Shown: positions 3,117 to 49,088 of the stretch, piece by piece
Position numbering within the stretch: position 1 is the stretch's first letter
Layout of the letters: every line of letters begins with the position of its first letter
Assembly (NCBI GenBank): GCA_029259715.1
Contig: JAJDEP010000014.1
Span: forward strand, 259,551 to 323,550
DNA length: 64,000 nucleotides
Direction: 5' to 3'
From: Planctomycetota bacterium
GTDB taxonomy: Bacteria; Planctomycetota; B15-G4
The notes under the pieces: model-generated
Seen by the model: only the letters and a program-made list of their open reading frames with translations
Told to the model about the DNA's origin: nothing
The model's database searches: none
Made by a program: the position numbers and the translations under genes

Positions 3117-4970
3117 TCAGCGGTCGACCTTCATGGAGACGTGGAAGCGCTTGGGATCCTCGAGGATCCATTCCTGGCCCATGATCGTCTCGGCCGTGAG
3201 CAGGTCGGACACGCGCCGCTTCTCGGCCTTGCTCAGCGTCGCCGACTTGCCTCGGGTCAAGGCCCCGGGTCCGGCCTCGAACAGGGCCCGGGCCACGGCG
3301 TACCCCACGCGGCCCGCGTTCGACACGCCGTCCGAGGCGAGGCGGTGGAGCTGGTCCATCCACTGGCTGATGCGCGGCACCGGCTGGTCGCTCACGTAGA
3401 GCCACAGGCCCTCGTAGGGCACCGCGTCCTCCACGCTCGCGATCTCTGTGCAGATCAACCGGGTCTCACCCGCCTCGACGCGCATGGCCCACGGATCGTC
3501 GGGCACCACGCCGTCGTTGTCGCTGCGTCGATCGGCGTCGAGCAGCTGCACCTGCATGGGCAGCATCCAGGTGGGCGGGCTCAGCTCACCGAACACCGAC
3601 ATGGCGTAGACGTACTTGGGACCGTCGGTCTCGATGATGGCGCCGATGCGGTCGGCGAAGCGCACGCTGGCGACGTCCGGGTAGTAGGACACCTCCTCGG
3701 GCGCGCCGCTCTCGATGCCGGCCCGCACGCGGAACCAACGCACGTCGAGCGGCTCCTCCTCGAAGATCCAGTTGCCCGCCGTGAGGCCGGCGCCCAGGGC
3801 CAGCACCGCGGCGGCGACGATGCGACGACGGCGCAGGGCGTAGCGCCCGGAGCGCAGCAGGCGCACGAAGGCGCCGCCCTGGCTGGCGATCGGCGGCTGC
3901 TCGCGGCTGATGAAGCGGCTCAGGTCCTCGCGCAGCTCGCCGGCACTGGCGTAGCGCCGACGCGGGTCGAGCTCGATGGCCTTGAGGCAGATGGCCTCGA
4001 GGTCCCGCGGGATGCCCGGGTCGAAGGAGCGGGGCATACGGAAGCGTCCCCGCTGGATGGACGACAGCACCGCCTGGGCGTCATCACCGGGATAGGCCCG
4101 TTGCAGCGTGAGGAACTCGTAGAGCAGCAGGCCGAGCTGGTAGATGTCGCTGCGCGGGTCGTTGCCCGTGCGACCGGCGGCCACCTGCTCGGGAGCCATG
4201 TAGGCCACCGTGCCCACCAGTCCCTTGTAGGCGGACGCCACGTCGTTGTCTTCCGAACCGGCCAGACCGAAGTCGAGCACCACCGGTGAACCGTCGCCGC
4301 GCAACATGACGTTGCGGGGCTTGATGTCGCGGTGGATCACGCCCTCGGCGTGGGCCTCTTCGATGGTCCGGCTCACCTCGCGCATGATGCGCGCCACGGC
4401 TTCGTACCAGCTGCCCTTGCCGGCCAGCGAGCGCCGGCCCTGGGGCGCGGGTTCGCCGATGGCGTCGATGAGCACCGCGGCATTGCGCGGCGCCCGTCCG
4501 CCTTCAGCCCGCACGGTCCGGCGCGCGTGGGACAGCACGTCCTCCGTGGTCGCGCCCTTGACCAGGTCCATGACGAAGAAGGTCATGTCCTCGTGCTCAC
4601 CGATCTCGTGGATGGCCACGATGTTGGGGTGCTGCAGGCGGGCCAGCAGCACGGCCTCGCGCTCCAGGCTGGCCTTCTTCTCGCTCGCCTTGCGACCGGG
4701 CAGATCCAGCACCTTCACGGCCACCGCGCGTTCGAGCTTCAGGTCGCGGCCCACGAAGACCGAACCCATGCCGCCGCGGCCCAACAAGCGGTCGACCTGG
4801 TAGCGGCCGAGCAGGATCGTGCCGGGCTCGATGGACGGGCCCGCGTCGGCGGCGACGCCGGTCCCCGAGGAGTCACCCTCAAGGCTGGGACCCGTGCTCG
4901 TGCGCCCATCCCGAATGGGGCTGCCCGCATCGGGCAGGGGTGTCGTGGCGAGGGGGTCGTGGTCTTTCAT
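3117..4970 (-). CDS. Ser/Thr protein kinase with TM segment and C-terminal extracytoplasmic domain of unknown function
   Basis: Kinase motifs GRGGMGSVF, VAVK, HRDIKPRNVML, DFGLA, APE. TM RRIVAAAVLALGAGLTAGNWIF follows the kinase domain. Start at the internal ATG (MKDHDPLATT). Confidence 0.8.
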   Translation of the reverse strand: MKDHDPLATTPLPDAGSPIRDGRTSTGPSLEGDSSGTGVAADAGPSIEPGTILLGRYQVDRLLGRGGMGSVFVGRDLKLERAVAVKVLDLPGRKASEKKASLEREAVLLARLQHPNIVAIHEIGEHEDMTFFVMDLVKGATTEDVLSHARRTVRAEGGRAPRNAAVLIDAIGEPAPQGRRSLAGKGSWYEAVARIMREVSRTIEEAHAEGVIHRDIKPRNVMLRGDGSPVVLDFGLAGSEDNDVASAYKGLVGTVAYMAPEQVAAGRTGNDPRSDIYQLGLLLYEFLTLQRAYPGDDAQAVLSSIQRGRFRMPRSFDPGIPRDLEAICLKAIELDPRRRYASAGELREDLSRFISREQPPIASQGGAFVRLLRSGRYALRRRRIVAAAVLALGAGLTAGNWIFEEEPLDVRWFRVRAGIESGAPEEVSYYPDVASVRFADRIGAIIETDGPKYVYAMSVFGELSPPTWMLPMQVQLLDADRRSDNDGVVPDDPWAMRVEAGETRLICTEIASVEDAVPYEGLWLYVSDQPVPRISQWMDQLHRLASDGVSNAGRVGYAVARALFEAGPGALTRGKSATLSKAEKRRVSDLLTAETIMGQEWILEDPKRFHVSMKVDR

Positions 4971-5132
4971 GGTCGAGCACGCTCGATCGTCAGGGGCACG
5001 GACAGGCATGCATTCTAGAGGGGCTCGCGGCCCCGATCCGAAGCCGTCCCGACGAGAAATGCCCCCGAGGGCCCTGGAACGACCGTTCGGGACGCCTGCA
5101 CCGCCCCCAGGCCCCAAACCACTCCGGGCGGG

Positions 5133-9036: not shown

Positions 9037-9806
<770 letters not shown>

Positions 9807-9877: not shown

Positions 9878-10915
9878 CTACCGGGGGACGGCCACCCCGC
9901 GCGCCTGTCCCGAATCGAGCGCCGAACCCCGCCCTGCCGACGCCGTCCACACCCCGGCCCCGGGGTGAAAAGCGTGCCAGGCGAACCAGTAGGCCGTGAC
10001 GCCCGGGAGGCGCTCCCCGTCGGCGGTGGTCACCTCGGCGCTGTGAGCCTCGACGTCGTAGATGATCACTACCGAGCGGCCGCCGAGGTCGTCGGGCAGC
10101 GCCAGCCGCTCCACGTCCAGGGACGCAGCCTCCCGCTCGAGCTCGTCGAGGGGCCAGGCCTTGGCCACCGACCCGATCACCAACCCCAAGACCTTCGACT
10201 TGGGCGGCCGCGAGGCGTCGTCGTGGGACACCGGATACCACAGCGCCTCGCTCTCTGCGTAACCCGGATAGAGCGGTCTTGAATAAGCCAGACCGGTGTT
10301 CGTCGGCGCCGACAGGAGAATGGTCTCGGGGTGGCGTGTGCGCCAGTCGGCCCAACTCGTCTCCACCAGCGGCAGGCGCGTCAGCGTGGCGCCGTTGAGC
10401 GGACCGGTCACCGCTTGGGCCTGCAGTTGCGACCAGAGCGACTCGGTGCCGCGGTCGAACATGAGCAGGTCGGAGTTGTGCAGCAGCCCCGAGACGCCGA
10501 AGACCAGGCGCCGGCCGTCGTACTCGGCCACGAAGGCCAGGCCCGAGGCGCACAGCGGACAATACGTGACGGCCACCGGCCGGCCGTCGAAGCGATCGTT
10601 CACAATCTCGTGATAGGTGAGCACGTCGATGCCATAGGCCTTGGCCACGCCCCCATGGACGAGGCCCAGCACACGCGCCGAGCCGCGCAGGTCGGCCTCC
10701 TCCGCGCTCACGAACGTCGGCGCGTCGAGGGCCTTGATCCCGTCGCGGCGCGTACCGACGAGGATCGTGCTCGGGGGCACCGCCGCCCCCGTGAGATCGA
10801 AGCCGTTGACCAGGGCCGGTTCGTCGTCCGGACCGCAGGCGGACGTCAGCACGAGCAGGCCGCCGAGGATGAGCGTCCCGATCATCGCGGGGATCCAGCG
10901 GCTTTCGGTCTCCAT
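9878..10915 (-). CDS. DUF3179-like lipoprotein (conserved hypothetical)
   Basis: Start METESRW. Lipobox LVLTSAC. Conserved blocks VAVTYCPLC, GLLHNSDLLMFDRGTESLW. The upstream 200 codons of the ORF are Arg/Gly-rich junk. Confidence 0.6.
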   Translation of the reverse strand: METESRWIPAMIGTLILGGLLVLTSACGPDDEPALVNGFDLTGAAVPPSTILVGTRRDGIKALDAPTFVSAEEADLRGSARVLGLVHGGVAKAYGIDVLTYHEIVNDRFDGRPVAVTYCPLCASGLAFVAEYDGRRLVFGVSGLLHNSDLLMFDRGTESLWSQLQAQAVTGPLNGATLTRLPLVETSWADWRTRHPETILLSAPTNTGLAYSRPLYPGYAESEALWYPVSHDDASRPPKSKVLGLVIGSVAKAWPLDELEREAASLDVERLALPDDLGGRSVVIIYDVEAHSAEVTTADGERLPGVTAYWFAWHAFHPGAGVWTASAGRGSALDSGQARGVAVPR

Positions 10916-16316: not shown

Positions 16317-16895
16317 CTAGGTCCCGGAATTCGGCGCCTGGGGCAACGCGCAGAAGGCACCTTCGCTGAATCCGGCCGAGCCGATGTCGAGGGCATGGTC
16401 GAAGCGCGCGCGGTAATTCTCCCACGCGATGCAGGAGGTGAGTTCCACGATCTGCCGCGCGTCGAAGTGCGTGCGCAGTTCGGCGAACAGCGCGTCCGAA
16501 ACCTCGACGGGCGTCGCCGTCATGGCGACGGTGTAGCGCAGCGCCGTCTTCTCGCGGTCATCGAAGGCGTCGCACGTCTCGAACTCAGCCAGCCCCTGCA
16601 GCTGCTCGTCAGTGACACCTTCCTGCCGGCTCACGGCCGACCCGATGTCGAGTCAGAACGGACACCCCACGAGCATGGCCGCCTTCACGTCGCACAACAG
16701 CTTGAGCCGGGCGTCGATGGTCGTGGCCGCCTCCTGGGCCATCTCCATGTGCGCGTAGCCGCGCAGCAGGCGTGGATGGTTCGCGGTCACGGCGATGGGC
16801 TCGAGCACCTGCCCCAGGCGCCGCTTGCACATGAAGTAGGCGATGCGAGCGAACGGGCTCGCCTTGTTCGCGGGGACACGTTCGATGCGTGACAT
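16317..16895 (-). CDS. AhpD-like / carboxymuconolactone decarboxylase-family protein with in-frame TGA (candidate selenocysteine) at the CxxC second Cys
   Basis: ORFs 16653..16952(-) and 16317..16634(-) are in the same frame and separated only by one TGA: ...MLVGCPF-TGA-LDIGSAVSRQEGV.... The position matches the NGCxxC(V/I)D motif of AhpD/CMD proteins. Both halves match one CMD domain. Confidence 0.55.
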
Positions 16896-16971
16896 GTCGG
16901 GCCTCCTCCGGTCGGTGTCGTGCGAGCACGCGGCGCGGGGTCGTGCGAGCACGCGGCACGGGGTCGTGCGG

Positions 16972-17757
16972 TCAGTCGTCCAGCGTGGCGATGACGGGCG
17001 CGTGGTCGGACGGTTTCTCCTGTCCGCGCTCCTCCTTGTCGACGACCACCCCCGTGCAGGCGGCGAGCGCGGGCTCGCTCATCAGGAAGTGGTCGATGCG
17101 CAGGCCGTGGTCGCGGGGGAAGCCGCGGGTGCGGAAATCCCACCAGGTGTAGTGCCCGCCGTCCTGCTCGAACTTGCGGAAGGCGTCGTGGAGGCCCGGC
17201 GCCATCATCGCAGCGAGGGCTTCGCGCTCAGGCTCGCTGCAGTGGATCTTGTCGCGCCAGCGGTCGGGGTCGTAGACGTCGCGGTCGTCGAACGTCACGT
17301 TGAAGTCGCCCGTGACCACCACCTTCTCGGTCACCGGGAACTGCCGCTCGATGAGGTCGGCCACGGCCGCCATCCAGCGCAACTTGTAGTCGTACTTCTC
17401 GTCGCCCACCTCCTTGCCGTTCACGACATAGAGGTTGAGCAGCATCACGTCGCCCACCGTGGCGCCGATGACCCGGGCCTCGTCCTTGAAGCCTTCGCCC
17501 TCGAGGCCATCGCCGACGATCCCTCGGTGGACAGACTCGATGGGCTGCTTGGCCAGGATCGCCACGCCGTTGTAGGTCTTCTGCCCGAAGGTCTCGACGT
17601 TGTAGCCCGCGCCTTCGATGTCATCGCGGGGGAACTGCTCGTCCTGGCACTTCAGCTCCTGCAGGCAGACCACGTCGGGCTGCGCGGTGGAGAGCCAGTC
17701 GAGCACCCGCGGCAGGCGCGCGCGGACGGAGTTCACGTTCCAGGTGGCGATGCGCAT
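16972..17757 (-). CDS. xth: exodeoxyribonuclease III
   Basis: MRIATWNVNS, CLQELK, DFN, SDHAP motifs. Start at the internal ATG. Confidence 0.9.
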   Translation of the reverse strand: MRIATWNVNSVRARLPRVLDWLSTAQPDVVCLQELKCQDEQFPRDDIEGAGYNVETFGQKTYNGVAILAKQPIESVHRGIVGDGLEGEGFKDEARVIGATVGDVMLLNLYVVNGKEVGDEKYDYKLRWMAAVADLIERQFPVTEKVVVTGDFNVTFDDRDVYDPDRWRDKIHCSEPEREALAAMMAPGLHDAFRKFEQDGGHYTWWDFRTRGFPRDHGLRIDHFLMSEPALAACTGVVVDKEERGQEKPSDHAPVIATLDD

Positions 17758-17857
17758 GGCGCGCAAGGATAGCGGCGCACCCCCGGCGAGGCCACGGCCG
17801 CCCCGCGGCCCGTCCGAAAACGGGCCCCCGCGACCTCGCCGGGGGAACACCTGACAT

Positions 17858-19570
17858 TCAAGGTTGGATGATCAGCAGGCCGTCCGTCCCCGCCCAACCG
17901 AAGGGCGCGACCGGGTCCTGGATCCAAGACTGCAGGTAGATCTTCTCGCCGAGCGGCAGGCCCGCCGGCCAGGTAGCCGGGATCACGATCGAGCCGGCGG
18001 CATCGGTGACGAGCAACACGATGTTCGCGGGCGGGTTCGCATCGGGCACCAGCGTGCCGCCGTTGAGCGGCGTCAGCGCCGCCGCACGTGAACCGATCAG
18101 GAAGGCGATGGCGCTGGGCCGCGCGTCCGTCAGCGCGAGCGAGACAGGGTCACCGCCCTGCAGGTCTCCCGTCGCCGTCAGCACCGGAAGGCCGACCGTC
18201 CCGGCGACGCCGGCCGGGATGCGCTTGAAGCGCGCTCCGGCGAACCTGACCACATAGGCGTAGCCGTTGCCGTCCGCGTTGGCGCCCACGATGAAGTCGG
18301 CCTGGCAGTCCCCGTCGATGTCACCCAGGCAGGAGAGCCCGGAGCCGAAGTGGTCGCTGGCCGTCACGGCCGTGCCCAGTCCTGCCGCGAACCCCGGCAG
18401 CTTGGAGGCCCCGTTCAGTGTTCCGTCGGTCTTCAGGCGCAGCAGATACAGGGCCCCCCGGTTGGTCCCGCCGTCGTCGTCGAGGGCCGCGCTGACCAGC
18501 AACTCCGTGACGCCGTCGCCGTCCACGTCACCCATCGCCGCCAGTGACCCGCCGAAGTTGTCGAAGTTGTCGAGATTCCAGGTGAAGCCGCCCACGTTCT
18601 CCGTGATGCGGGTATGGGTGCGCACCGTGCCGTCGGCGTTGAGGAACAGGATCCACACACCGCCGACCGAACCGCCCGACGGCTCGTCCATCGAGATGCC
18701 GCCCACGGCCAGATCGACCACGCCGTCGCCGTCGAGATCCCCGATGTTCTCGACGGCGAAGCCGAACCGATCGCTCTGGGCGACGTCGGTCGTCGCCAGT
18801 CCCCCGGAGCCCGAGCCGATCTTCGAGCGGGCCTTCACCGTCCCGTCGGCGTTCAACAGCAGGATCCAGACCGCACCGGTGAAAGGCGCCCCGTCGAAGT
18901 CCGAGCTGGCGCCCACGGCGATGTCCATCACGCCGTCGCCATCGAGGTCGCCCAGCGGGCTGATGTCGGAGCCGAAGTTGTCGTTGCTCTTCAACGCCCC
19001 GCCCATGCCCGAGGCGTCGCTGATGCGGGCGTGGCCCTTCACGCTGCCGTCGGCGTTGAGGAACAGGATCCAGACGGCGCCGGCGTCGCTGCCGCCCTCG
19101 TCGTCGTTGTCGGCACCGACGGCCAGGTCGGGGATGCCGTCCCCGTCGAGGTCCCCGAGGTCGCCGAGACCGTGTCCGAACTTGTCTCCCTCGGCGAGGG
19201 CGCCCGTGAATCCGCCCAGGCCATCACCGATCTCGGTCGTGGCCTTTACGGTCCCGTCGGCGTTCAGGTGCAGGATCCACACGGAACCGGTCCCGTTGTT
19301 GCCGACGGCGTCGTTGTTGCGGAACTGGCCCACCGCGACGTCGACCACGCCGTCACCATCGAGGTCGCCGATCCTGGTGGCGGAGGTCCCGAACTGCTCG
19401 CCACTCAGGATCGTTCCCCCGAAGCCACCCTGGGAGTTTCCGATCTTCTGGTGGTCGAGCACGGTCCCAGGCACTTGAGCGGCCCCCGCCGGGGCGAGCC
19501 ACGCGACGGACGCAACCGCCGAAAGCGTGAGAGCGGCGAGACGAGCATGAGCGGGATGACGTGACGACAT
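17858..19570 (-). CDS. secreted FG-GAP repeat (integrin-alpha-like beta-propeller) protein
   Basis: Signal peptide. At least 7 repeats of GDLDGDGVxDxAVG / VWILxLNADGTV. GGAGG RBS upstream. Confidence 0.8.
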   Translation of the reverse strand: MSSRHPAHARLAALTLSAVASVAWLAPAGAAQVPGTVLDHQKIGNSQGGFGGTILSGEQFGTSATRIGDLDGDGVVDVAVGQFRNNDAVGNNGTGSVWILHLNADGTVKATTEIGDGLGGFTGALAEGDKFGHGLGDLGDLDGDGIPDLAVGADNDDEGGSDAGAVWILFLNADGSVKGHARISDASGMGGALKSNDNFGSDISPLGDLDGDGVMDIAVGASSDFDGAPFTGAVWILLLNADGTVKARSKIGSGSGGLATTDVAQSDRFGFAVENIGDLDGDGVVDLAVGGISMDEPSGGSVGGVWILFLNADGTVRTHTRITENVGGFTWNLDNFDNFGGSLAAMGDVDGDGVTELLVSAALDDDGGTNRGALYLLRLKTDGTLNGASKLPGFAAGLGTAVTASDHFGSGLSCLGDIDGDCQADFIVGANADGNGYAYVVRFAGARFKRIPAGVAGTVGLPVLTATGDLQGGDPVSLALTDARPSAIAFLIGSRAAALTPLNGGTLVPDANPPANIVLLVTDAAGSIVIPATWPAGLPLGEKIYLQSWIQDPVAPFGWAGTDGLLIIQP

Positions 19571-19851: not shown

Positions 19852-20451
19852 ATGGACCACCCGCCCCACGACGCCCCGCCCCCGGACGACGGCACACCGG
19901 ACGCCGCGCCGGGCGACCGCCCCGACCCCACCCTCGGCGAACACCCCGAGGCGGGCCAACTGCTGCCCCTCGTGTACGACGAGCTGCGGGCCGTAGCGGC
20001 CGACCATCTGCGCCGGGAGCGCGTCGACCACACGCTGCAACCCACCGCGCTCGTGCACGAGGCCTACTTGCGTCTGGCACGGCTCGATCGCATCCAGTGG
20101 AAGGACAAGACCCACTTCTTCGTGGCCGGCGCGGGCGCCATCCGGCGGGTGCTCGTGGACCACGCCCGCGGCAAGGGCGCGGCCAAGCGCGGCGGCGGCG
20201 CCCGGCGCATCACCCTCGGCGCCGTCCCCGGCGTGGAGGCGAACCACGAGGTCGACCTGATCGCCCTCGACGAGGCCCTCGGCAAGCTGGCCGGGCTCGA
20301 CCAACGCAAGGCCCGCATCGTCGAGCTGCGCTACTTCGGCGGCCTGACCATCGCAGAGACCGCGCGGGCCCTCGGCGTGGGCACCACCACCGTCGAGGAC
20401 GACTGGGTCTTCGCCCGGAGCTGGCTGCGGCGCGAGCTGGGCGAACGATGA
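19852..20451 (+). CDS. ECF-type RNA polymerase sigma factor of the Ser/Thr-kinase-associated subgroup (TIGR02999/ECF43-like)
   Basis: Sigma region 2 (LLPLVYDELRAVAADHLRRE...ALVHEAYLRL) and region 4 HTH (RIVELRYFGGLTIAETARALGVGTTTVEDDW). Its stop overlaps the kinase ATG (ATGA). The start may instead be the ATG at 19843. Confidence 0.75.
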   Translation: MDHPPHDAPPPDDGTPDAAPGDRPDPTLGEHPEAGQLLPLVYDELRAVAADHLRRERVDHTLQPTALVHEAYLRLARLDRIQWKDKTHFFVAGAGAIRRVLVDHARGKGAAKRGGGARRITLGAVPGVEANHEVDLIALDEALGKLAGLDQRKARIVELRYFGGLTIAETARALGVGTTTVEDDWVFARSWLRRELGER

Positions 20452-22985
20452 GCGACCGCTTCGCGCGGATCGAGGCGCTGTTCCAGGAGGCGCGGCGGCT
20501 GCCGGCGGATCAACGCAGCGCGCTACTGGCCGGTTCCCCGGCCGACCTCCGCGAGGAGGTCGAGTCGCTGCTGCGCGAGCACGACCGCGACACCCAACCG
20601 TTCCTCGAGACCCCCGCCCTGGGCAAGGACTTCAAGGTGGCGCCGGTGCCCGCCGAGACCATGGTGGTGCCCGAGCGCATCGGTCCCTATCGCATCCTCG
20701 AGCGGATCGGCGAGGGCGGCATGGGCGCCGTGTACCTGGCCGAGCAGGACCAGCCGCGGCGGGTCGTCGCGCTCAAGATCATCCGACCGGGCTGGGCCAC
20801 GCCGGCCATGCGCCGACGCTTCCAGCACGAAGCCGAGGTCCTCGGTCGGTTGCGGCATCCGGGCATCGCACAGATCTACGACGCCGGGCTCGACGAGCAG
20901 GAACACGGCGACTTCCCCCACATCGCCATGGAGTACGTCGACGGGCGACCCTTGCACGAGTACATCGCCAAGGAGCACCCCGACCTCGCCGAGCGGCTCG
21001 ACCTGTTCGCCCAGGTCTGTGACGCCGTCGAACACGCCCACGCCAAGGGTGTGATCCACCGCGACCTCAAGCCGGGGAACATCCTCGTGGAGGATGTCGA
21101 CGGCAAGCCGCGCCCGCGGGTGCTCGACTTCGGCATCGCGCGCATCACCGACGCCGATGTGGCTCTCACCACCATGCGCACGAGCCTCGGTCAGCTCGTC
21201 GGCACGCTGCAATACATGAGTCCCGAGCAGGCCGCCGGTGACTCGACCCAGCTCGACCACCGCAGCGACGTCTACTCGCTGGGCGTGATCCTGTTCGAGA
21301 TGCTCACGGGGCGGCTGCCCTACGACCTCGGCAAGGGCATGGTCCATCAGGCGGTGAGCGTGATCCAACACGAGGAACCCACCGCGCTGGCCGCCATCGA
21401 CACGAGCCTGCGGGGCGACCTCGACACCATCGTGGGCAAGGCCCTGGAGAAGGACCGGCAGCGGCGCTACCCGTCGGCGGGCGCCCTGGCGGCCGACATC
21501 CGCCGCTTCCTCGCCCACGAGCCGATCCTGGCCCGGGCGCCCAGCACGCTCTACCAACTCGGCAAATTCGCGCGACGCAACCGCATCCTGGTGGCCGGCG
21601 TGTCGGCCGTGATCGTGGCCTTGTCCGTGGGCCTGGCCAGCACCCTCTGGCAATGGCGCGAGACCGAGGCCCAGCGCGCACTGGCCGAGGGTCGATTCGA
21701 GGACCTGGACGAGCTCGCACGCTTCTTCATCGCCGAGTTCGACTCGACGCTCATGCACGTGCCCGGCACGCTGGAGGCTCGGCGACTGATCGTCTCGCGC
21801 GGCCTCGACTACCTCGACCGGCTCGCGCAGGAATCGGAGCTCGACCCCGAACGGCAGCAGACGATCATCTCGGGCTACTCGCGCATCGGTGACATCCAGG
21901 GCGCCCCGCAGCAACCCAACATCGGCGACGTCGGCGGCGCCCTCGCCAGCTACCGCAAGGCCCTCGCCCTCAATCAAGGCCTGCTGAACGACGAGCGGGG
22001 GTGGCACACGCCCCACCTGTCTCAGGCCAGCCTGCTCGCGCGCATGGGCGACGTGTTCTCCTACCAGCAGGCCTACGAAAAGGCGCTCGAGCACTATCAG
22101 CAGGCCCTCGTGTATTGGAACGAGTACCACGACCGGGCGGCGACGTCTCCGCGTCCCCCCAATCCCTATCGCGATCGCATCGCCGAGCGGCTGCTGACCC
22201 TCGGACGGCAGGCCCAGGCCGACGACGAGTTCCGCATCGCCCACGAGGAGGCGGTGCACTGGGCCGCGCTGCACCCGGGGGAGTGGAAGATCGAGCGCCA
22301 TGTGCTCGTGGCACTGATGAAGGTCGCCATGCAGGAGGAGCGCGGTCAACGCCTCGAGGAGAGCCTCACGCACTACGCCGAGTACCTCGAACTCGGCCAC
22401 CGGTTGTTGGCGGACGAGCCCCACAACGCGATCCTGCTGCGCGACCTCGCCACCGGCTACAACCGCCGGCGCGACGTGCAGGTGGCGCTCGGGCGCACCG
22501 CCGAGGCCCTCCGCGACAACACCCAGGCGGAGCACTACTACTCCCAGCTCGTCGAGGCCGACCCCACCAGCGCGCAGGCCCTCATGGACTGGGCCCTGGC
22601 CGTCAACGCCGCCGGCGAGATGGCCCTCGCGGCCGGCGACCTGCCCGAGGCCCGCTCGAGGTTCGAGCAGTTCTGCGACATCTCGGCGCAGCTGGTCGCG
22701 CGCGACCCCGATCACTCGGGCTACCTACGCCGTCGCGGCGTGGCCCTGTTCAAGATGGGCGAGTACCACAAGGCGCGGGAGGAGTGGGCCCTCGCCCGGG
22801 ACTGGTTCCACCAGAGTTACAAGCACTTCCGCAACATGGAGTCCCGCGGCCTCATCTGGCAGAGCGACCTCGACGCCGGCGTCATCGAGGAGATCGCGGG
22901 AGAGATCACCGCGTGCATAGGCGCGGATCTGCAGCAGGCCGAGGCCGAGCTGAAGCAGGCGCCCCTCGCGCCCGAGGGGCCGTAG
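20448..22985 (+). CDS. Ser/Thr protein kinase with TM segment and C-terminal TPR-like repeats
   Basis: GEGGMGAVY, ALK, HRDLKPGNIL, DFGIA, SPEQ. TM ILVAGVSAVIVALSVGLAS. A C-terminal helical-repeat region. Start at the internal ATG (MSDRFARIEALFQEA). The upstream 117 codons of the ORF are Arg-rich junk. Confidence 0.85.
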   Translation: MSDRFARIEALFQEARRLPADQRSALLAGSPADLREEVESLLREHDRDTQPFLETPALGKDFKVAPVPAETMVVPERIGPYRILERIGEGGMGAVYLAEQDQPRRVVALKIIRPGWATPAMRRRFQHEAEVLGRLRHPGIAQIYDAGLDEQEHGDFPHIAMEYVDGRPLHEYIAKEHPDLAERLDLFAQVCDAVEHAHAKGVIHRDLKPGNILVEDVDGKPRPRVLDFGIARITDADVALTTMRTSLGQLVGTLQYMSPEQAAGDSTQLDHRSDVYSLGVILFEMLTGRLPYDLGKGMVHQAVSVIQHEEPTALAAIDTSLRGDLDTIVGKALEKDRQRRYPSAGALAADIRRFLAHEPILARAPSTLYQLGKFARRNRILVAGVSAVIVALSVGLASTLWQWRETEAQRALAEGRFEDLDELARFFIAEFDSTLMHVPGTLEARRLIVSRGLDYLDRLAQESELDPERQQTIISGYSRIGDIQGAPQQPNIGDVGGALASYRKALALNQGLLNDERGWHTPHLSQASLLARMGDVFSYQQAYEKALEHYQQALVYWNEYHDRAATSPRPPNPYRDRIAERLLTLGRQAQADDEFRIAHEEAVHWAALHPGEWKIERHVLVALMKVAMQEERGQRLEESLTHYAEYLELGHRLLADEPHNAILLRDLATGYNRRRDVQVALGRTAEALRDNTQAEHYYSQLVEADPTSAQALMDWALAVNAAGEMALAAGDLPEARSRFEQFCDISAQLVARDPDHSGYLRRRGVALFKMGEYHKAREEWALARDWFHQSYKHFRNMESRGLIWQSDLDAGVIEEIAGEITACIGADLQQAEAELKQAPLAPEGP

Positions 22986-24755: not shown

Positions 24756-25851
24756 TCACCGCTTGCGGCTCCTCAGGTAGGTCTCGATGAAGGGCTGGAT
24801 GCCGCCGTCGAGCACCGATTGGGTGTTGCCGATCTCGTGGTCGGTGCGGTGGTCCTTCACCATCTGGTAGGGGTGCAGGACGTAGCTGCGGATCTGGTGT
24901 CCGAAGCCGATGTCGCCCTTCACGCCCTGGATGTCGGCGAGCTCGGCGGCCCGCTCGGACTCGGCCCGGGTGGCGAGCTTGGCGCCGAGCATCTTCATGG
25001 CCGTGTTGCGGTTCTTGTGCTGGCTGCGCTCGCTCTGGCACGCCACCACGATGCCCGTGGGGATGTGCGTCAGGCGCACGGCGGAGTCGGTCTTGTTGAC
25101 GTGCTGGCCGCCCGCGCCCCCCGCGCGGAAGGTGTCGACGCGCAGGTCGTCGCTCTTGATCTCCGGCGCCTCGGCGTCGTCGAGCTCGGGCATGATCTCC
25201 ACCGCGGCGAAGCTCGTCTGGCGCCGGCTGGCCGCGTCGAAGGGCGAGATGCGCACCAGACGATGCACGCCGTTCTCGGCGCGCAGGTAGCCGTAGGCCC
25301 AGTCGCCCTTCACGAGCATGGTGGCCCACTTCACGCCGGCCTCGTCGCCCTCGAGCTTGTCCACCAGCTCGTACTCGTAGCCCTGCTCCTCGCACCAGCG
25401 CCCGTACATGCGCATGAGCATGGCGGCCCAGTCGCACGACTCCGTGCCGCCGGCGCCGGCCTGCACCGAGAGGTAGGCGTTGCGCACGTCGTACTGACCG
25501 TCGAGCATGACGCGGAACTCGAGCCGCTCCATGTCGGCGTTGACGGCCTCCGACATCTGCTCGGTCTCGGCCACGACGGCTTCGTCCTCGGTCGCCAGCT
25601 CGACCATCACTTCGAGGTCGTCGAGCTGGGCGTCCATCGCCAGCAACGGATCGAGGCTCGCCTTCACCCGCTTGAGTTCGCCGACGACGACCTGGGCCGA
25701 CTCCTGGTCATTCCAGAAACCGTCGGCGGCCATCTTGTCTTCGAGTTCGGTCCGGCGTCCGCTCAGGCGATCCGAGTCAAAGAGAGTCCTTGATCTGGTT
25801 GAGGCGACGGCGGATGTCGGTGGCGCGGGCCTTTACGTCGTCGAGGGCCAT
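24756..25851 (-). CDS. prfB: peptide chain release factor 2 with programmed +1 frameshift
   Basis: Frame-0 start [24 protein letters not shown], then CTT TGA C. Frame +1 continues [22 protein letters not shown]..., with the SPF motif and the GGQ motif ([16 protein letters not shown]). Confidence 0.9.
25776..25782 (-). promoter_or_regulatory. prfB: RF2 autoregulatory +1 frameshift heptamer CUU UGA C with upstream SD-like AGGA
   Basis: Minus-strand mRNA reads AAGGACUCUCUUUGACUC. The in-frame UGA is followed by a +1 reading frame encoding the rest of RF2. Confidence 0.85.
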
Positions 25852-26247: not shown

Positions 26248-26793
26248 TCAGTCGGCGGAAGCGTGGGCCGCCTCGATGGCCGCGATGATGTCCGCTTCAA
26301 GGGCGAGGGCGCCCTGACCCGTCTCGCCGCACGCCAGGGTCTTCTCCACCGGCTCAACGATGTGGAAGCGTTCCCACCCGGCGAGGGTGTCGAGGTTCGC
26401 GCGCACGGCGGGGTTCTCCCACATGGCGGTGTTCATGGCCGGCGCGAGCACCACCGGCACCGACGCACGGCTGGCCAGCACCACCGTGCTGAGCAGGTCG
26501 TCGGCCAGGCCATGGGCGAAACGGCCGAGCGTGTTGGCCGTGGCCGGCGCCACGGCGATGACGTCGGGCCAACGGGCGAGCTGGATGTGCTCGATGCTCG
26601 CGTCGGCCGTCTCCCAGAGGGAGGTGGCCACCGGGCGGCCCGAGAGCACCTCGAACGTCATCGGCGTCACGAAGCGCTGCGCTGCGTCGGTCATGACCAC
26701 CTGCACCTCGTGGCCGTGATCCGTCAAGCGACGCAGCACCTCGCAGGACTTGTAGGCCGCGATACCGCCGGTGATGCCGAGGAGCACCTTCAC
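26248..26793 (-). CDS. coaC: phosphopantothenoylcysteine decarboxylase (flavoprotein)
   Basis: GITGGIAAYK, PAMNTAMW. GTG start overlaps the coaB stop (GTGA). The ORF-track start at 26832 would overlap coaB by 43 nt. Confidence 0.8.
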   Translation of the reverse strand: MKVLLGITGGIAAYKSCEVLRRLTDHGHEVQVVMTDAAQRFVTPMTFEVLSGRPVATSLWETADASIEHIQLARWPDVIAVAPATANTLGRFAHGLADDLLSTVVLASRASVPVVLAPAMNTAMWENPAVRANLDTLAGWERFHIVEPVEKTLACGETGQGALALEADIIAAIEAAHASAD

Positions 26794-27434
26794 GAGGTGG
26801 TCAGCTCCGACTGCGAGCGCTCGCCGATCCATGTCATCAGCGCAGACGCGAGCGAGGCCTTGCCGCGGACACGGGCCTCGACGCCGCGGGGGCCCACCAG
26901 CACGGCCGCATGATCGTCGTCGCCGATGGCCGCGGCATCGTTCGCAACCACCAGGTCGAGGTGTGCCCGTTGCCGCAGCGACTCGGCGGCCTCGACGAGT
27001 CGGCCTTCATCGACATCCGAGAGCAGCTTGAATCCCACCAGCAACGCCTCGGGGGCCAGCGCGCGCAGCCCGTCGATGAGCTTGGGAGCCCGCCGCAGTC
27101 GGATCACCAGCTCCTCGGCATCGGAGCTCAGCTTGCCCGACGACCGTTCGGGGATGTAGTCGGACACCGCCGCCGCATGGATGACCACATCGGCCTCCGG
27201 CACCCACTGCCGCAGCAGGTCACACAGCTCCGCCGACGTGTCGAACCAGTGCGTCTCCACGGTCGCGTCGGGACGAGCCCTCGCTCCCCGCGCCATCAGC
27301 AAGACCACGTCGAATCCAGCCTGCACGGCGGCATCAGCCACGCGGGCGCCGAGGCGTCCGGTACTGGTGTTCGCCACGACCCGCACGTCATCGATGGGTT
27401 CGCGGGTGCCGCCCGCGGTCAAGACGATGCGCAT
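26790..27434 (-). CDS. coaB: phosphopantothenate--cysteine ligase
   Basis: LTAGGTREPIDDVRVVANTSTGRLG, AAAVSDY, FKL motifs of CoaB. Confidence 0.8.
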   Translation of the reverse strand: MRIVLTAGGTREPIDDVRVVANTSTGRLGARVADAAVQAGFDVVLLMARGARARPDATVETHWFDTSAELCDLLRQWVPEADVVIHAAAVSDYIPERSSGKLSSDAEELVIRLRRAPKLIDGLRALAPEALLVGFKLLSDVDEGRLVEAAESLRQRAHLDLVVANDAAAIGDDDHAAVLVGPRGVEARVRGKASLASALMTWIGERSQSELTTS

Positions 27435-28300: not shown

Positions 28301-31300
28301 TCACGATAAACCCAGCCTGGCCAGCATCTTGTAGAAGGTACGGGTTCCCACCCCCAGGCTGCGGGCAGCGGCCGCCTTGTTGCCCTGCGAGCCCTCCAGG
28401 GCCCTCAGGACCTGTTCACGCTCGAAAGCGAGAAGCCGGTCCTTGATGGATCCGTCCCCGCCCTGGGGGCTCTCGTCGCCACCGGGATCGGATCCGGGGG
28501 TTCCGCCACCGACCACCCCGGACCCGCCTCCCGCCGCTCCCCGGTCGATGGGGCCGGCCGGGCTGAGCACACGGGTCACCAACTCGAGCGAGAACGACGA
28601 GCTCTCCCGATCGAACATGAGCAGGTTGCTCACCAGGTTCTGGAGCTCGCGCACGTTGCCCGGCCAGGTGTGGCGCTCGAGCGCCCGCAGGGCTTCGGGG
28701 TCGAGCGTGCGCGGCTCGCCGTCGTGATCGGCGACGAAGTGCTCGATGAGCAACGGGACGTCCTCGACACGATCGCGCAACGGCGGCAGGTGCACCTCGG
28801 CCACGGCGAGCCGATAGAACAGGTCCTCGCGGAAGGTGCCCTCGGGGATCATCTTGCGCAGGTCGCGGTTGGTGGCGCTGAGCACACGCACGTCAACCTG
28901 CCGCTCCTCGCGACCGCCGACGGGCAGGAAGGTGCCCTCCTGCAGGACGCGCAGGAGTCGCTTCTGCACGTCGAGGCTCATGTCCCCCACCTCGTCGAGG
29001 AACAGCGTGCCGCCGTCGGCCTGCTCGAACAGGCCGCGGTGATCGCGGTCGGCGCCCGTGAACGCCCCCCGCACATGCCCGAACAGCTCGCTCTCGATCA
29101 GGTGCTCGGGGATGGCCGCGCAGTTGAGTGAGACGAAATTGGCCAGCTTGCGGGGGCCGTTGAAGTGGATCGCCCGGGCGATGAGCTCCTTGCCCGTGCC
29201 GCTCTCGCCCTGGATCACCACGGGGTACTCGGTGTCGATGATGCGATCCATCAGGTCGAGCACGTCGTGCATCTTCGGGCTGCGCGTGACGATCTGGCTG
29301 TAGTCGTACTTGAGGCTCAGGGCCCGGCGACTCGCGTCGAGGGACTCACGCACCTCCACCAGCTCGGCCTCGCGCTGGTCGAGCCGCGATTGCAGCGCAT
29401 CGTTGAGACGCGCGACCTCGTCCTGGCTCGCCCGCAGCTCGTCGTTGGTGGTGCGCAGGCCTTCCTGCAGGCGCGCGTTCTCGAGCGCGATGGTCGCCTG
29501 CTCGGCCAGGCCGGTGGCCAACTCGAGGTGGCCCTCGTCGAAGCGGGACACCACCTGGGGGTGGTCGAGGTAGATCGACCCGATACCGCGCTCCTTGATG
29601 ATCAGCGGCACGCACAGGATCGAGAGCAGCTTGAGCTCGGAGATGCTGCGGGCGGACGCCAGGCGCGGGTCGTCGATGGCGTTGTCGGTCAGGATGGGCT
29701 GCTTGCTCTGCATGACCTGACGCGAGACCGAGTGGCTGATCTCGAACTCGGGGTTGTCGATGTCGCTCTCGTCGATGTTGCGCGCCACGCGGAATTCCTG
29801 GGCGGACCCCTGGAACAGGATCAGGAAGCCCCGGGCCGCGCCCGTCATCTCGATGGCCGCGTCGACGATCAGGTCGAGCAGCTGCTGGGTGTCGTGCACG
29901 CTGTTGAGCGCCTTGGTGATCTCGGCCAGGCGTTCGAGGTTGCGGACACGTTCGGCGAATCGGGACAGAGCGGTCATGTCTTCTCCCTGGTGCTCCATCT
30001 TCGCTTGTCCAACGGCCAGCGCATCGAGTTTCTCCGACAGCGGGACCAGGTCGAGCAGCTTCACCAACAGCCGCGCGCGGTCGCCGTCCCGCTGCAGGCG
30101 CACGAGCAACCCGCCCACGACGCCGTAGTCGAGGTGGGGCTCCTGCATGGCCGCTTCCAGGCGCGCCAGGTCGACGGTGCCCCGGTCGACGAGCCCCGCC
30201 GCCTCCACGGGGCCGTCCGGGGACTCGCCCAGGATCGTGTGGGCCAGCTCGAAGTCGGCATCCGCCTCCGCCGCCCGGGCCTGCCGTTCACGCCCGACCG
30301 CCCGGGTGAACAGCAGCGCCGCCAGGTGGGGCCCGCGTTCCTCGACGGTCGCATCCACGTCCTCGAGATCGTCGGCGCCACACCGTCCCAGCAGCGCCCG
30401 TGCCACGAGCTGCTCCTCCCGATGGCCGACGGAGCGGGCCTGCTCGAGGGCCGCCTGCGCCGAGGCTCGAGCCGCCTCGCGGTCCCCCTCGTAGAGCTCG
30501 ATGCGCGCCAGCTGCAGGCGCGACTTGATCTCATACTCGGGCACCGTGACCCGGGTGAGCAGCTCGCGCGCGCGCTCGATGTCCGCGCGCGCCTCGGCCG
30601 GTCGCCCCCGGAGCAGGCGCCAGTGGCCGCGCGTCGTGAGGACGATGGCCTGGCCCCGGTCGTCACCGCGCGCGGCGCGGATGGTGAGGCTGCGCTCGAA
30701 GGCCTCTTCCGCCTCGTCGAGACGGCCTTCCGACGCCAGTGCCCGGCCGGTGTTGTTGTGCACCACGGCCTGCAACCACTCGTCGCCGATCCGCTCGGCC
30801 AGGGCCAGCGAGCGCTGGAACTGCCGGCGCGCCGTGTCGACGCGTCCCAACTCGAGCCAGCCGATGCCCAGGCCGTTGAGCGCGTGCGCCAGGCCGAGGG
30901 AATTGCCCGCCATCTCCATGCGTCGGGCGGCCTCTTCCTGGATGGCCAGGCCCCGCCGCCGCTCACCGCGCACGCGCACGATGCGTCCGAGGTTGCTCAT
31001 CATCGGGCCGATGAGCACGTCCTGGCCGAGCTCCTTGGCCATGGAGATGGACGACTCGAGCTGAACCATGGCCTCGTCGTGGTGTCCCAGCTTCTCCTCG
31101 ATCAAGCCCACCCGCGCGCGGATCATCATGGTGCGGCGATGCGGGCGCGCGCCCTGCCGGCGCATGGCTTCGCGCATGTCGCGCAGGGCTTCCTCGGAGC
31201 GGCCCAGGATGTCGAGGGCATCCGCGCGCGTCTCGAGCAACAGGGCGGCGTCCGCGTCCGCCAGGGGATCGGCGTCGACGTCGATGAGCAGGTCGATGGC

Positions 31301-33370
31301 GTCGTTGGCGCGCCCGCGCAGGATCTGGATGCGGGCTTCGCGCTGGGTCAGGCCCACGTCACCGGGGAGTCGGCGGCGGGCCTCTTCGACCGTCGACAAG
31401 GCGGCGTCGTAGTCGGCCGCCCGGATGGTCACGTCGATCAGGTCGAGCCATACCGCCCGCGCTCCGACGTCCTCCAGCGCCACACCCTTCACGCCGCGAC
31501 GCAACAGGCCCATGGCCCGCTCGAGGCGCCCCACCCGCCGGAGCTGCTCGGCCGCCCGCCGGATCAAGGCGCGCGTGGCGACGCCGTCGCCGTCCTCGGG
31601 CGGGTGATCGCCGAGGACGTCCGCGACAGCGACCGCCGCCGCCGCATCGAGGGGTTCGATGTCGAAGCGTTGCGCCAGGGCCACGCGATGGGCCGCGGAC
31701 ACGTCCACCCCCGCGCGGAGCTGACGACGCAGGCGCTCGTCGGCCGGCGAATAGAGGTCCTCGGGCTGCGACCGCTCCCGCCGCAGGATGCCCCGGGCCA
31801 CCAGGGCGGCGAGTGCCGCACCGACGTCCCGCCCGAGGACCTCGGCGCACGCCCCCGCGGAGAGCGGGCGCGGACACAGGGCCAGCACGCTCAGTAGTTC
31901 CTTGTCGAGGCCCGTGAGCAATTCGTCGAGGTCACCCTCGGAGGCCACGGGCCACTCGGCGGCGAGTCGGCCCTCGTGCACGCCCACGCCCTGCGCACCG
32001 CGCACGACGACGCCGCGCATGGGCAGCGCGCCGAGGGCGCCCACCAGCTCGCCGTGCTCGCGCAGCGGTGTCGCTTCGAGGCGCTCTTCGAGCACGGGCT
32101 GACGACCGATCCACTCGCGCAGCACCTCGATGTCCTCCCCGGGCGCCAGGCCGGCGCCGGCGCGCAGCCTCAGCCCGCGCACGTCCGCGAGCTGCCGCGC
32201 GACCGCGTCTCGAGACCGCGCCGCCCGCTCGTCGGGCGCCGCCGCGCGCCCGATGGAAACCACCAACGGCCGACACTCGGCCAGGGCCTCGATCAATCCG
32301 GCGAGATCGGCGGCACTCGCCCGGCCCGTGCGCACTTCGGCCGCGGCGAGACGCGCGGACAGGCGCGCCGGCGCCGCGTCGACCGTGGCCGCGAGGGCAA
32401 CCAGCTGCGACATGGCCTGACCCAGCGATGTCTCCGGCGCCGCAAACGGTGCGAGCCAGACCGCGCCGCCGGCCACGGCGTCCAGCCGGGCCGAGCGCTG
32501 AGAATCGTGACGGGCCAGCGCTGCCGAGAGTTTGCCGACCAGGGCGGCCTGCTCCTCGCCTTCGACCAGCGCCGGCGCCGCACCCGGCAGCGACGCGATG
32601 GCCTCAAAGCCATCGGCCGGACGCACGGCCGGATCCGGATGGAGCAGGCGCTCGAGCAGCGCGATCAGGTCCGCGTCCCCCACCCGCGCGGCCGCCTCGG
32701 ACGGCAGTCCGGCGAAGGCCTCGCGCTCGGCCGCCATCCCCGCCGGATCGCTGGCCGAGAAGAGCAGGTGCCCGGTGAGCCCCTCGGCCAGGACGAGCCC
32801 CACCGCCCACAGGTCACTGGACGTCGACGGCGCCTGCCCCCGCAGCAACTCGGGCGCCATGTTCCGGGGGGTGCCGGCGAGGGGACGCGCAGCGGCCTCC
32901 TCCCGCGGACACGACAGACCCAGGTCGAGGATCACGGGACGGCCGGTGGCCCTTTCGAGGCGCACGTTGTCGGGCTTCAGGTCGCGATGCAGCAACCCCA
33001 GTTCGTGCAGGAAGCCCACGGCCGAGAGCAGCTGCACCGCCAGGGTGACGCCGTCGCGGCGCGCCGCGCCGCCCCCCCCCTCACCCGCCGTGCCCGGCCC
33101 GAAGGCCACGCCTTCCACGTACTCGGTGACGGTGTAGATCCTGCCCGAGCCGGGGAGGCGATTGGCATCCAGGCAGGCCACCAGACCGGGGTGGCGCACC
33201 CCCAGCAGCGCCATCTCCGCCGCTGCCTGATCCTCGCTCTCGGGGCCGTGCAGCTTGAGCGCCACCTGCCGCCCGCCTGCGTCTCCGGCGCGCCAGACCT
33301 CGGCGCCGTCGGCGCGCGACAGGCATTCCTCGAGGCGATATCCGGCGACGCGGGGAGCGTTCATGACCAC
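28301..33370 (-). CDS. multidomain regulator: N-terminal Ser/Thr kinase, helical/TPR-like region, GAF, sigma-54-interaction AAA+ domain, Fis-type HTH (NtrC-family enhancer-binding protein fused to an STK)
   Basis: Kinase: [22 protein letters not shown]: [40 protein letters not shown]: [32 protein letters not shown]: [23 protein letters not shown]. Confidence 0.85.
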
Positions 33371-41811: not shown

Positions 41812-42513
41812 ATGGGACCCTTCATCGGCGTCACTTGCAGTGCCGACCCGGACGGCGAGCCGCGGGTCAATCCACGCTACGTCCGTGCGCTGCATCGCAT
41901 GGGCGCCCTGCCCGTGGCCCTGCCCTTCCTGACCGACACGGCGGCCGCCCACGCGCTCCTCGATCGCCTCCATGGCGTGCTCCTCACCGGCAGCGAGGAC
42001 ATGGACCCGAGCTTCTGGCAGGAGCAGCCGCATGCCGCGACGGTGCTCATGCACCCCCACCGCATGACCACCGAGGTGGAATTGTGCCGCGCGCTGCTCG
42101 AGCGCGACCTGCCGACCCTGGGCATCTGCGGCGGGATGCAGAACCTCAACGCCGTGGCCGGTGGCTCCATCCACCAGCACATCCCCGACCTCGGCGACGT
42201 CGGTCCCCACAGCGACCCCACCTTCGCCGCGCGGCACGCGGTGGAAGCCGTCGGCGACTCGCGCCTCGGCACGCTCCTCGGGACCGCGTTCGAGACGAAC
42301 ACCGAGCACCACCAGGCCTGCAACCGCCTCGGCGAGGGGCTCGTCGCCACCGCGTGGTGCACCGACGGCGTCATGGAGGGGCTCGAGGCGCCGGACAAGC
42401 GCTTCTTCGTCGCCGTCCAATGGCATCCCGAGCTGATGCTCGACGACCCGGCCCAGGCGGGTCTCATCGCCGCCCTGGTGGACGCCGCCCGCGACGTCCC
42501 CTGCGGCGGCTGA
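41812..42513 (+). CDS. class I glutamine amidotransferase-like peptidase C26 (gamma-glutamyl hydrolase / PuuD family)
   Basis: IGVTC, GICGGMQNLN (nucleophile Cys), WHPE. Confidence 0.75.
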   Translation: MGPFIGVTCSADPDGEPRVNPRYVRALHRMGALPVALPFLTDTAAAHALLDRLHGVLLTGSEDMDPSFWQEQPHAATVLMHPHRMTTEVELCRALLERDLPTLGICGGMQNLNAVAGGSIHQHIPDLGDVGPHSDPTFAARHAVEAVGDSRLGTLLGTAFETNTEHHQACNRLGEGLVATAWCTDGVMEGLEAPDKRFFVAVQWHPELMLDDPAQAGLIAALVDAARDVPCGG

Positions 42514-48800: not shown

Positions 48801-48968
48801 GACGAAGCCCTCGATGAGGATCCCGTGCAGCCCGCCCTCACCGCGGGTGGTGAGTCCGCGCGGGCCGCTCAGGTCATTGAGCAACGAGACGGTCTGGCCG
48901 GAGGCAACGGCTGCCAGCAGGCACAGGGCCGCGAAGGCGCGAAGGGTCGGGAGGGTTGCCGTAAACAC
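45801..48968 (-). CDS. very large secreted surface protein with FG-GAP/integrin-alpha repeats and IPT/TIG-like beta-sandwich domains
   Basis: Signal (V)FTATLPTLRAFAALCLLAAVASGQ. Repeats DxDGDGxDDxxxGAP. Start set at the GTG/TTG near 48968-48974. The upstream part of ORF 45801..50045 is antisense to dprA. Confidence 0.7.
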   Translation of the reverse strand: MFTATLPTLRAFAALCLLAAVASGQTVSLLNDLSGPRGLTTRGEGGLHGILIEGFVQPVTSAVGRSVAILDANQDGYDDLLIGAPLMPTDPLDPALVTNPFPAPDEAGHAYLIFGSAEKGTPGSDAEIDLRNLGPGEGIDFIGPPGSHTGTAVAAVGFINNDAFPDFVIGAPLRSEGGLNLNGGAYLVLGGATIGNGSHQQFLENLRATTAGTFLRGNRSMAMVGSALGGGIDADGDGSDDIILGAPFDSSDGLLQNGSAWIAYGFNSMANVSTRILNGALPGGLTEVRGSDNFQLLGTSVAGIGRFDPVLPGQAGATSLIGDEFAIGAPSASLNGKLLSGAVAVLRGVELPATPAALLTLDDFGDGPDDAGPVFTGGAQGDRAGHFVGPAGDFFEEGGGADIYDDLIITAPLNGDLGRPQRGATYVISGAFDSAAPAGYDLSLAGTPARPLSLEILGQATGEGVLGVFAVPGGDWNSDGIDELLLGTPSSAHLDINFVTFPEAGRLRVLDGGVLSGLHGSTVNLDFPPPGVFQLQFSGEAAGFHAGTTVAAGDLNNDGDPDLATGAPGAASRPSAEPFGSVAWRETGRAHAVYGPIFRLGNVAPTDVFFGGPDVEMEVFNLVEPFTVEVDGLTVEIVDSMSGSTGSITFRVPPPPGAPPFGPLSDLTLTTPLGTQTFDNFIQFVETEITEPPEPDRGLPGQTIAVRGIAFNDVEEFGVRDTEVFIDGVPMTVQSVVFDDPEEGGDGDPDVLTATITVLLEKGPQLNELVDIEVRNSNGSDVLENAFTYKTIMVTGVEPATGPAESGIFDEDQTGPPPFMGEEAIDVEVTIDSSIIPPVDLVFEFGNDEQGFEVVPASLDENVFTFTLPSNLKGPVETLMDLRVTDSTGTDTLVDGFTYAESDFEQRDDYDESLSYAGTGFGPLPPRLRMSGELSPGCDVLVLADRFAPETTAAGLFISLEEFDPPLELRGGSFGPDVTGLHFLIIFPTPAPQFSLPFRVNPDPSGLTGDEVIFMQLYTEEEDAGIIRIGLSNLLVGFVDLSPEKCEPAPPPPGY

Positions 48969-49088
48969 CTGCAAATCAAAGGGCTGCGTGCGGTTTGAGG
49001 GCCCGGATCGTACTGCCCTGCCGGGAGAGCGTCTAGCAGCGGTCGGGGGACCGGGGTAACCCAGCGACCAGGGGCCCGTCGGGGGGCT

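Follow-up and report, generated by a model that had tools for sequence, protein, structure and literature searches.

The canonical AhpD active site has the form CxxCxxxH, as in M. tuberculosis AhpD. AhpD-like proteins of the COG2128/YciW type, in which selenocysteine (Sec) creates a CxxU motif, were first reported as a selenoprotein family in 2005, in the Sargasso Sea selenoproteome, which supplied 27 sequences (PMC1088965), and in the GOS survey "AhpD-like 1", represented by 299 Sec and 902 Cys sequences, was among the most abundant GOS selenoproteins (PMC2398784). AhpD-like selenoproteins are also listed in reviews (PMC9312934; PMC13188914). The gene examined here lies in a 64,000-nucleotide stretch of DNA, a metagenome-assembled consensus that we refer to as the window, and resembles this family in its CMD/AhpD fold, in the predicted replacement of the second Cys of CxxC by Sec, in a SECIS-type hairpin that follows the UGA closely and has a conserved apical-loop G, and in belonging to a group that is widespread in environmental bacteria and has many Cys homologues. 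The comparisons described below indicate that its in-frame TGA very probably encodes selenocysteine in an AhpD-like (YciW/COG2128) redox selenoprotein.

The gene is located on the minus strand at 16895..16317, and contains 192 codons followed by a TAG stop codon at 16319-16317. It starts with the ATG at 16895-16893, where the homologues also begin with an aligned Met, and a Shine-Dalgarno sequence, GGAGGAGG, can be read 6 nt before this ATG (16902..16909, minus strand). The sole internal in-frame stop is the TGA at 16655-16653, in the context ...AAMLVGCPF*LDIGSAVSRQ..., and if this codon (16653..16655, minus strand) is read as Sec, it provides residue 81 of a C78-P-F-U81 motif, with 111 further codons before the TAG. 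Sequence and translation thus agree with the original prediction that two same-frame minus-strand ORFs are split here by one TGA, and the two gene halves do appear as separate ORFs in the program-made ORF list. Gene callers were also expected to break the locus in two, and the public collection (NCBI and Logan sources) indeed holds only a 105-aa C-terminal piece that starts at an internal GTG (16317..16634, minus strand; P0001, 99% identity, 55% coverage), which is entered there as a protein of its own and is an annotation artefact. Taking together the sequence, its translation, the Pfam CMD and NF053654 matches, the AlphaFold2 model and the Foldseek comparisons, we consider it highly likely that the complete CDS (16317..16895, minus strand) is one intact gene, encoding an AhpD-like (CMD-fold, YciW/COG2128-type) thiol/selenol oxidoreductase with a predicted Sec81.

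The joined protein matched the Pfam CMD model (PF02627) with 36.7 bits, above the gathering cutoff of 23, which bears out the expectation that the two ORFs form a single CMD/AhpD domain, and since this domain spans the TGA, neither half constitutes a complete fold. An AlphaFold2 model, based on 120 homologues, had a pLDDT of 94.8 and was all-helical, with nine helices, one of them (62-76) preceding the C78-x-x-U81 centre and another (83-91) following it. In Foldseek comparisons, the model gave TM scores of 0.73-0.80 to AhpD-core and "peroxidase-related" structures of ∼185 residues. Both the Pfam score and the all-helical AhpD-core fold place the protein in the CMD/AhpD superfamily.

The solved AhpD-core proteins used for comparison (3c1l, 2prr, 2pfx, 6k40 from D. 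radiodurans AhpD, 6e8l from S. pneumoniae AhpD, 7xw1/2ijc from PA0269, and 1knc from M. tuberculosis AhpD) share the all-helical fold, and carry a CxxC-type motif at the same position, although the M. tuberculosis AhpD structures were weak Foldseek matches (E > 1). Pairwise alignments with Cys homologues and with solved CMD/AhpD structures put the TGA opposite the second Cys of CxxC, where it had been predicted to fall, with GCAYC of the PDB CMD proteins aligned to GCPF[TGA]. Unlike the solved proteins, the window protein would have Sec for the second Cys, and it has Gly85 for the His that is found four residues past the second Cys in PA0269-type proteins (GCAYCVNMH), and therefore lacks the CxxCxxxH arrangement of canonical AhpD. 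It also contains a near-invariant extra Cys, Cys182 (C-A-L-P), close to the C-terminus, and the presence of Gly in place of His together with the additional Cys suggests that the catalytic details probably differ from those of canonical AhpD. Judged from these residues, the protein is AhpD-like, and not an AhpD orthologue. The Bmp8 debrominase of the CMD family (6ohi/6ohj) was among the few solved structures to match over the full length in both sequence and fold (residues 23-170, E 3.5e-8, TM 0.76-0.79), but with a sequence identity of 18-19%, and we found no support for a dehalogenase role or a bmp-type cluster. Around the family, no neighbour is conserved.

Relatives of the gene were collected by scanning species-representative bacterial genomes (one per species), which yielded 571, and the best 80 were examined. 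TGA was present at the Sec codon in all 80, of which 78 were recognised by the motif GCPF-TGA and the remaining two (CHF-TGA and CPF-TGA-LDIN) by inspection. The hosts of these 80 genes are MAGs of Phycisphaerae/Planctomycetota, Bryobacterales/Terriglobia, other Acidobacteriota, "Deltaproteobacteria"/Myxococcales, Binatia, Dormibacterota and Marinimicrobia. TGA was likewise found at the Sec codon in all seven loci of two sampled metagenome clusters, at GC contents of 0.30-0.57. The UGA therefore occupies the same codon across lineages, and the frame is open on both sides of it, with exactly one internal stop over 146 codons in 78 of 79 sequences; the exception (L026) merely ends earlier. Among the best 120 database homologues, Cys was the commonest residue at the Sec position (80 proteins), followed by "Trp" (25), Gly (8), Ser (4), Leu (1) and Arg (1). 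The alignment to homologues that had been suggested as a check on the prediction thus pairs the in-frame UGA with a redox Cys in 80 of 120 database proteins, and with TGA in every one of the 80 genome relatives.

In the E. coli fdhF-type SECIS, a hairpin lies within the coding sequence directly 3' of the UGA, after an 11-nt spacer, and has a GGUC-containing loop. A SECIS-type hairpin is predicted in the window at 16625..16641 on the minus strand, where the alifold consensus, pairing counts, covariation, synonymous collapse and local fold all point to it. Its 5' arm is GUCGGC (16641-16636), its loop CGUGA (16635-16631) and its 3' arm GCCGGC (16630-16625), forming a 6-bp stem (G-UCGGC / GCCGG-C) that begins 11 nt past the UGA, a geometry that we take to be the canonical one of E. 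coli fdhF and the Moorella SECIS-SelB complexes. Like the fdhF element, it is placed in the CDS 3' of the UGA with an 11-nt spacer and an invariant G-U in the loop, and some family members have GGUC-containing loops (GGUCG or GGUCA). It differs from fdhF in its shorter stem of six pairs, in having no evident bulged U, and in the loop CGUGA of the window copy; binding of SelB is presumed.

The RNA alignment on which the consensus structure is based contained 81 sequences, extended from TTY-TGA through 63 nt downstream, and was free of gaps. RNAalifold returned one hairpin, in columns 18-34, of the form N-UCUGC-NGUNN-GCAGA-N'. Standard pairs accounted for 96% of the UCUGC/GCAGA stem, compared to 37-55% when the 3' partner was slid by 1-3 columns, and the G and U of the loop were invariant across the aligned sequences, as in the conserved G(U) of a SECIS-type loop. 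Codon choice within the hairpin was similarly restricted, with TCT used for Ser +5 in 77 of 78 sequences, GGC for Gly +8 in 71 of 71, and AGA or AGG for Arg +9 in 78 of 79. Elsewhere in these genes, Ser, Gly and Arg columns drew on many codons, Arg being encoded mostly by CGC or CGG. This collapse of synonymous variation was confined to codons +5 to +9. The closing pair is made between the third position of Gly +4, which is fourfold degenerate, and the base that immediately follows Arg +9, and was formed in 55 of 81 sequences, mainly as GC (23), CG (18) and UA (13); shuffling of these columns gave 24.3 ± 3.5 paired sequences, and 55 was reached in none of 100,000 shuffles, a figure that is inflated by the relatedness of the sequences, although pairs of three types occur. 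The window is the only sequence to have TCG...CGG in place of TCT...AGR, a change that replaces U-A by G-C without loss of the stem, and this compensatory double substitution implies selection on the hairpin along the lineage of the window. Synonymous collapse, covariation and the compensatory change are three independent signals, and they show a constraint on the RNA and not on the protein only.

The original prediction had also described a hairpin, GCCG-UGAGC-CGGC, starting about 18 nt after the UGA; its location was correct, but its register was shifted and is not conserved, and the conserved hairpin starts at 11 nt. The outcome of folding the sequence downstream of the UGA, as had been proposed, depended on the length that was folded. 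A 28-nt segment of the window adopted the register seen in the relatives (−11.1 kcal/mol, 73% of the ensemble), whereas a 71-nt segment did not stand out in stability, and when compared with shuffled sequences, the single-sequence hairpin was not significant in either case (z −1.44 for the 28-nt and z +0.21 for the 71-nt segment). The minimum free energy hairpin of the 71-nt segment encloses the UGA, and was rejected in favour of the comparative structure since it is not conserved in the relatives. Scanning the whole window with Rfam at gathering thresholds gave no match. The composite pattern TGA-N12-TCKGC-NGTNR-GCMGR had a single occurrence in the window, and 100 shuffles produced none, which excludes chance; 83 related loci also have the pattern at the homologous codon. 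Support for the predicted hairpin is thus comparative, and not single-sequence.

At a number of loci, the Sec codon of CPF-type relatives has been exchanged for another sense codon: TTA (Leu) in L008, TCG (Ser) in L009-L011 and GGA (Gly) in L002-L007. The Leu and Ser variants lie within the TGA clade and the Gly variants outside it, and TTA and GGA are each one substitution away from TGA. In L008, the consensus hairpin is still intact, and in L002, there is an extended hairpin of 10 bp (−21 kcal/mol) with a loop that lacks G-U. A different arrangement was seen in L023, a groundwater MAG of Planctomycetota, which contains tandem paralogues ∼670 nt apart (9573-9602 and 10241-10270), both of which carry a TGA and a consensus hairpin; no second paralogue of the selenoprotein gene was found in the window. 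Replacement of Sec by Gly, Leu or Ser in some relatives suggests that the residue is dispensable in some lineages, and it is possible, although we think it doubtful, that the gene belongs to a distinct and very large YciW-type clade of AhpD-like selenoproteins whose function can in some cases dispense with the second redox residue. Such a clade would comprise at least 571 relatives among species-representative genomes, with UGA in all of the closest 80; it is covered by no curated model, and its SECIS-type hairpin is nearly sequence-invariant across several phyla. The Leu, Ser and Gly replacements would then hint at a 1-Cys mechanism via C78 and the conserved C182, or at a non-catalytic role.

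The main residual alternative to a functional Sec codon is a relic (orphaned) Sec gene, which was inherited as a true Sec gene by an organism that has recently lost its Sec machinery, such that the UGA now terminates translation and decay is starting. Searches of ∼40 window ORFs with Pfam and NCBIfam found no selA, selB or selD within the 64-kb window, and ARAGORN detected no tRNA of any kind, and hence no tRNA-Sec, in the window, nor any tRNA-Sec in 60 related loci; this absence from the window, together with the losses of Sec to Gly, Leu or Ser elsewhere in the family, is what a relic would lead one to expect. A gene in decay should also be losing its constraints, but no sign of this was found. 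Downstream of the TGA, 28 columns show a conservation of at least 95% among the 78 other sequences, and the window agrees with all 28; upstream, it matches 7 of 7 columns of the same conservation. Nei-Gojobori dN/dS values, obtained against the six closest relatives, were ∼0.2-0.3 in both halves of the gene (∼0.25), demonstrating that the downstream half is under purifying selection. In addition, the Shine-Dalgarno sequence and start codon are intact, and the SECIS stem was maintained through a compensatory double substitution. We therefore regard a relic as quite unlikely, and a gene still read through its UGA as the preferred explanation.

A second possibility is that the TGA is a recent nonsense mutation, which converted the second Cys codon (TGC or TGT) of an AhpD-like gene of the Cys type and created a pseudogene. 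TGA is indeed one substitution from either codon, Cys is the residue in many of the more distant homologues, and public annotation treats the locus as fragments, but the ancestry of the codon makes this very improbable. When a neighbour-joining tree was built from 198 sequences with the Sec column masked, the window protein was placed inside a clade of 98 leaves, 95 of which have TGA, the others being one TTA, one TCG and one Cys. Since the window nests within this clade, and since its nearest genome relatives (80 of 80) already carry TGA, a fresh nonsense mutation is excluded, and the TGA is, on the evidence of the tree, ancestral. A nonsense mutation would also not be expected by chance to be accompanied by a matching SECIS hairpin or by purifying selection on the downstream half. 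The nearest TGA-bearing relatives were Phycisphaerae/Planctomycetota MAGs (58-62% identity), and the best named matches of the window's RF2 were Planctomycetota MAGs as well (71-72% identity), which fits vertical inheritance in a Sec-using lineage. The original prediction of a selenoprotein and not a pseudogene is therefore upheld by the conservation of the TGA, the conservation of the hairpin and the selection acting on the downstream half.

Recoding of UGA as Sec must further be distinguished from reassignment of the codon to Trp or Gly (code 4 or 25), and from a locus that makes two separate products. In many database entries, annotation pipelines have put Trp for the homologous TGA, in line with reassignment, but the window itself argues for the standard meaning of the codon. 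It contains a prfB (RF2) gene (24756-25851, minus strand; TIGR00020, 474.8 bits) with a UGA-dependent autoregulatory frameshift site, in which a 24-codon leader starting at ATG 25851 ends in CTT TGA C, placing the +1 frameshift site at 25782-25776. With this site, the window contains a second case of UGA recoding, of a well-known kind. TGA also terminates most of the genes in the window, and prfB with its CTT-TGA-C site together with the TGA-ended genes shows that UGA in this organism is a true stop, which is subject to recoding and not to reassignment. The GC content of 71% and the Planctomycetota-like character of the sequence are furthermore unlike those of code-4 and code-25 lineages, and two separate products would require that the CMD domain, which crosses the TGA, be divided into halves of which neither is a complete fold, so that reassignment and separate products are both hardly credible. 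An error of sequencing or assembly, which the origin of the sequence in a metagenome assembly might suggest, and which the original prediction had named as grounds for rejecting it, has a negligible chance of explaining the TGA, since the homologous codon is TGA in the best 80 genome relatives and an independent Logan assembly of the same population (run SRR15505512) contains the same TGA on a contig that differs from the window at 1 of 2842 bases.

At two further places in the window, a single TGA separates strongly coding ORFs of one frame. Both were evaluated as Sec candidates and rejected as ordinary stops. At 42511-42513 (plus strand), a complete Peptidase_C26 domain precedes the stop, and at 28301-28303 (minus strand), the stop is preceded by a C-terminal HTH_8 domain.

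By analogy with described Sec systems, a ribosome arriving at the UGA (16655-16653) would encounter the hairpin that starts 11 nt downstream, which would recruit SelB-GTP-Sec-tRNA(Sec). In competition with RF2, Sec would then be added as residue 81, and translation would continue to the TAG. The C78-x-x-U81 centre of the resulting protein probably cycles between selenol/thiol and selenenylsulfide forms, and the target that it reduces would probably be a peroxide, a peroxiredoxin partner or another oxidised substrate. The gene structure, the fold, the conservation of UGA and hairpin and the selection on the downstream half are shown here, whereas we infer the insertion of Sec in this organism and the redox function.

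The surroundings of the gene were examined in the related loci as well as in the window. No neighbour was common to more than 10 of 79 loci, and the neighbourhood therefore offers no operon-based clue to function. In the window, a 76-nt spacer separates the selenoprotein gene from an exonuclease III-like gene (16972-17850, minus strand), and the greater part of this spacer is taken up by a 23-nt tandem repeat in ∼2.5 copies (16913-16970), the unit of which holds the palindrome CGTGC-GA-GCACG. The repeat might act as an operator or form an RNA hairpin; a search of its vicinity gave no consensus for a sigma-70 promoter or a terminator.

Several other features of the window were recorded. A CoaB-like ORF (26790-27434) precedes a CoaC-like flavoprotein ORF (26248-26832), both on the minus strand, with a 43-nt overlap in a different frame, and their order is the reverse of the domain order in fused CoaBC; they may be separate genes or the product of a frameshift. 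Ser/Thr protein kinases and large FG-GAP repeat proteins are abundant (3117-5117, 20097-22985, 28301-33370, 17858-19570, 45801-50045 and 52531-54621), and one protein of 1689 aa combines kinase, TPR, GAF, sigma-54 activator and HTH domains. This richness in kinase and FG-GAP proteins, and a GC content of 70.9%, fit the Planctomycetota-like matches of RF2.

Among NCBIfam models, the best match of the window protein was NF053654, 'GroundWater_YciW' YciW-related (seleno)protein, which has the same architecture and aligned end to end (positions 1-174 of 179, E 1.4e-38). The score of 132 bits was well below the model's curated cutoff of 310, as were the scores of ten diverse relatives (108-134), and the clade is therefore a sister group of NF053654 and not a member. 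Homologues carry the COG2128 product name in JGI annotation, and marine members are present (L016-18). From the COG/YciW naming, the CxxU motif and the marine members, we infer that the clade probably corresponds to the published AhpD-like (COG2128/YciW) subfamily.

The same codon has been handled differently in other database entries. The 25 "Trp" residues among the best 120 database homologues occur in proteins that read "GCPFW" (P0005, P0016, P0029, P0031, P0073 and 20 others). For the P0073 and P0031 clusters, the DNA was checked (loci L012-L018), and in each case the W proved to be a TGA to which metagenome gene callers had applied code 4, within the sequence TGY CCN TTY TGA ATT GAY ATY GGT TCT GC... 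Soil-type contigs of 55-57% GC and TARA ocean contigs of 30-32% GC make up these two clusters. By extension from these two, all 25 "CPFW" proteins probably represent the homologous TGA read under code 4. Public protein sets thus carry systematically mistranslated selenoproteins, and as the nearest NCBIfam model scores below its cutoff for this clade, splitting or mistranslation of the gene probably affects hundreds of environmental genomes. The pattern TGA-N12-TCTGC-NGTNR-GCAGR offers a simple diagnostic motif for the family.

The gene is an expected and ordinary member of an abundant, known bacterial selenoprotein family, and its main import is for annotation. When called correctly, this gene enlarges by one protein the selenoproteome inferred for an uncultured lineage that is probably planctomycete, and the presence of a selenoprotein gene implies that the organism uses selenocysteine.
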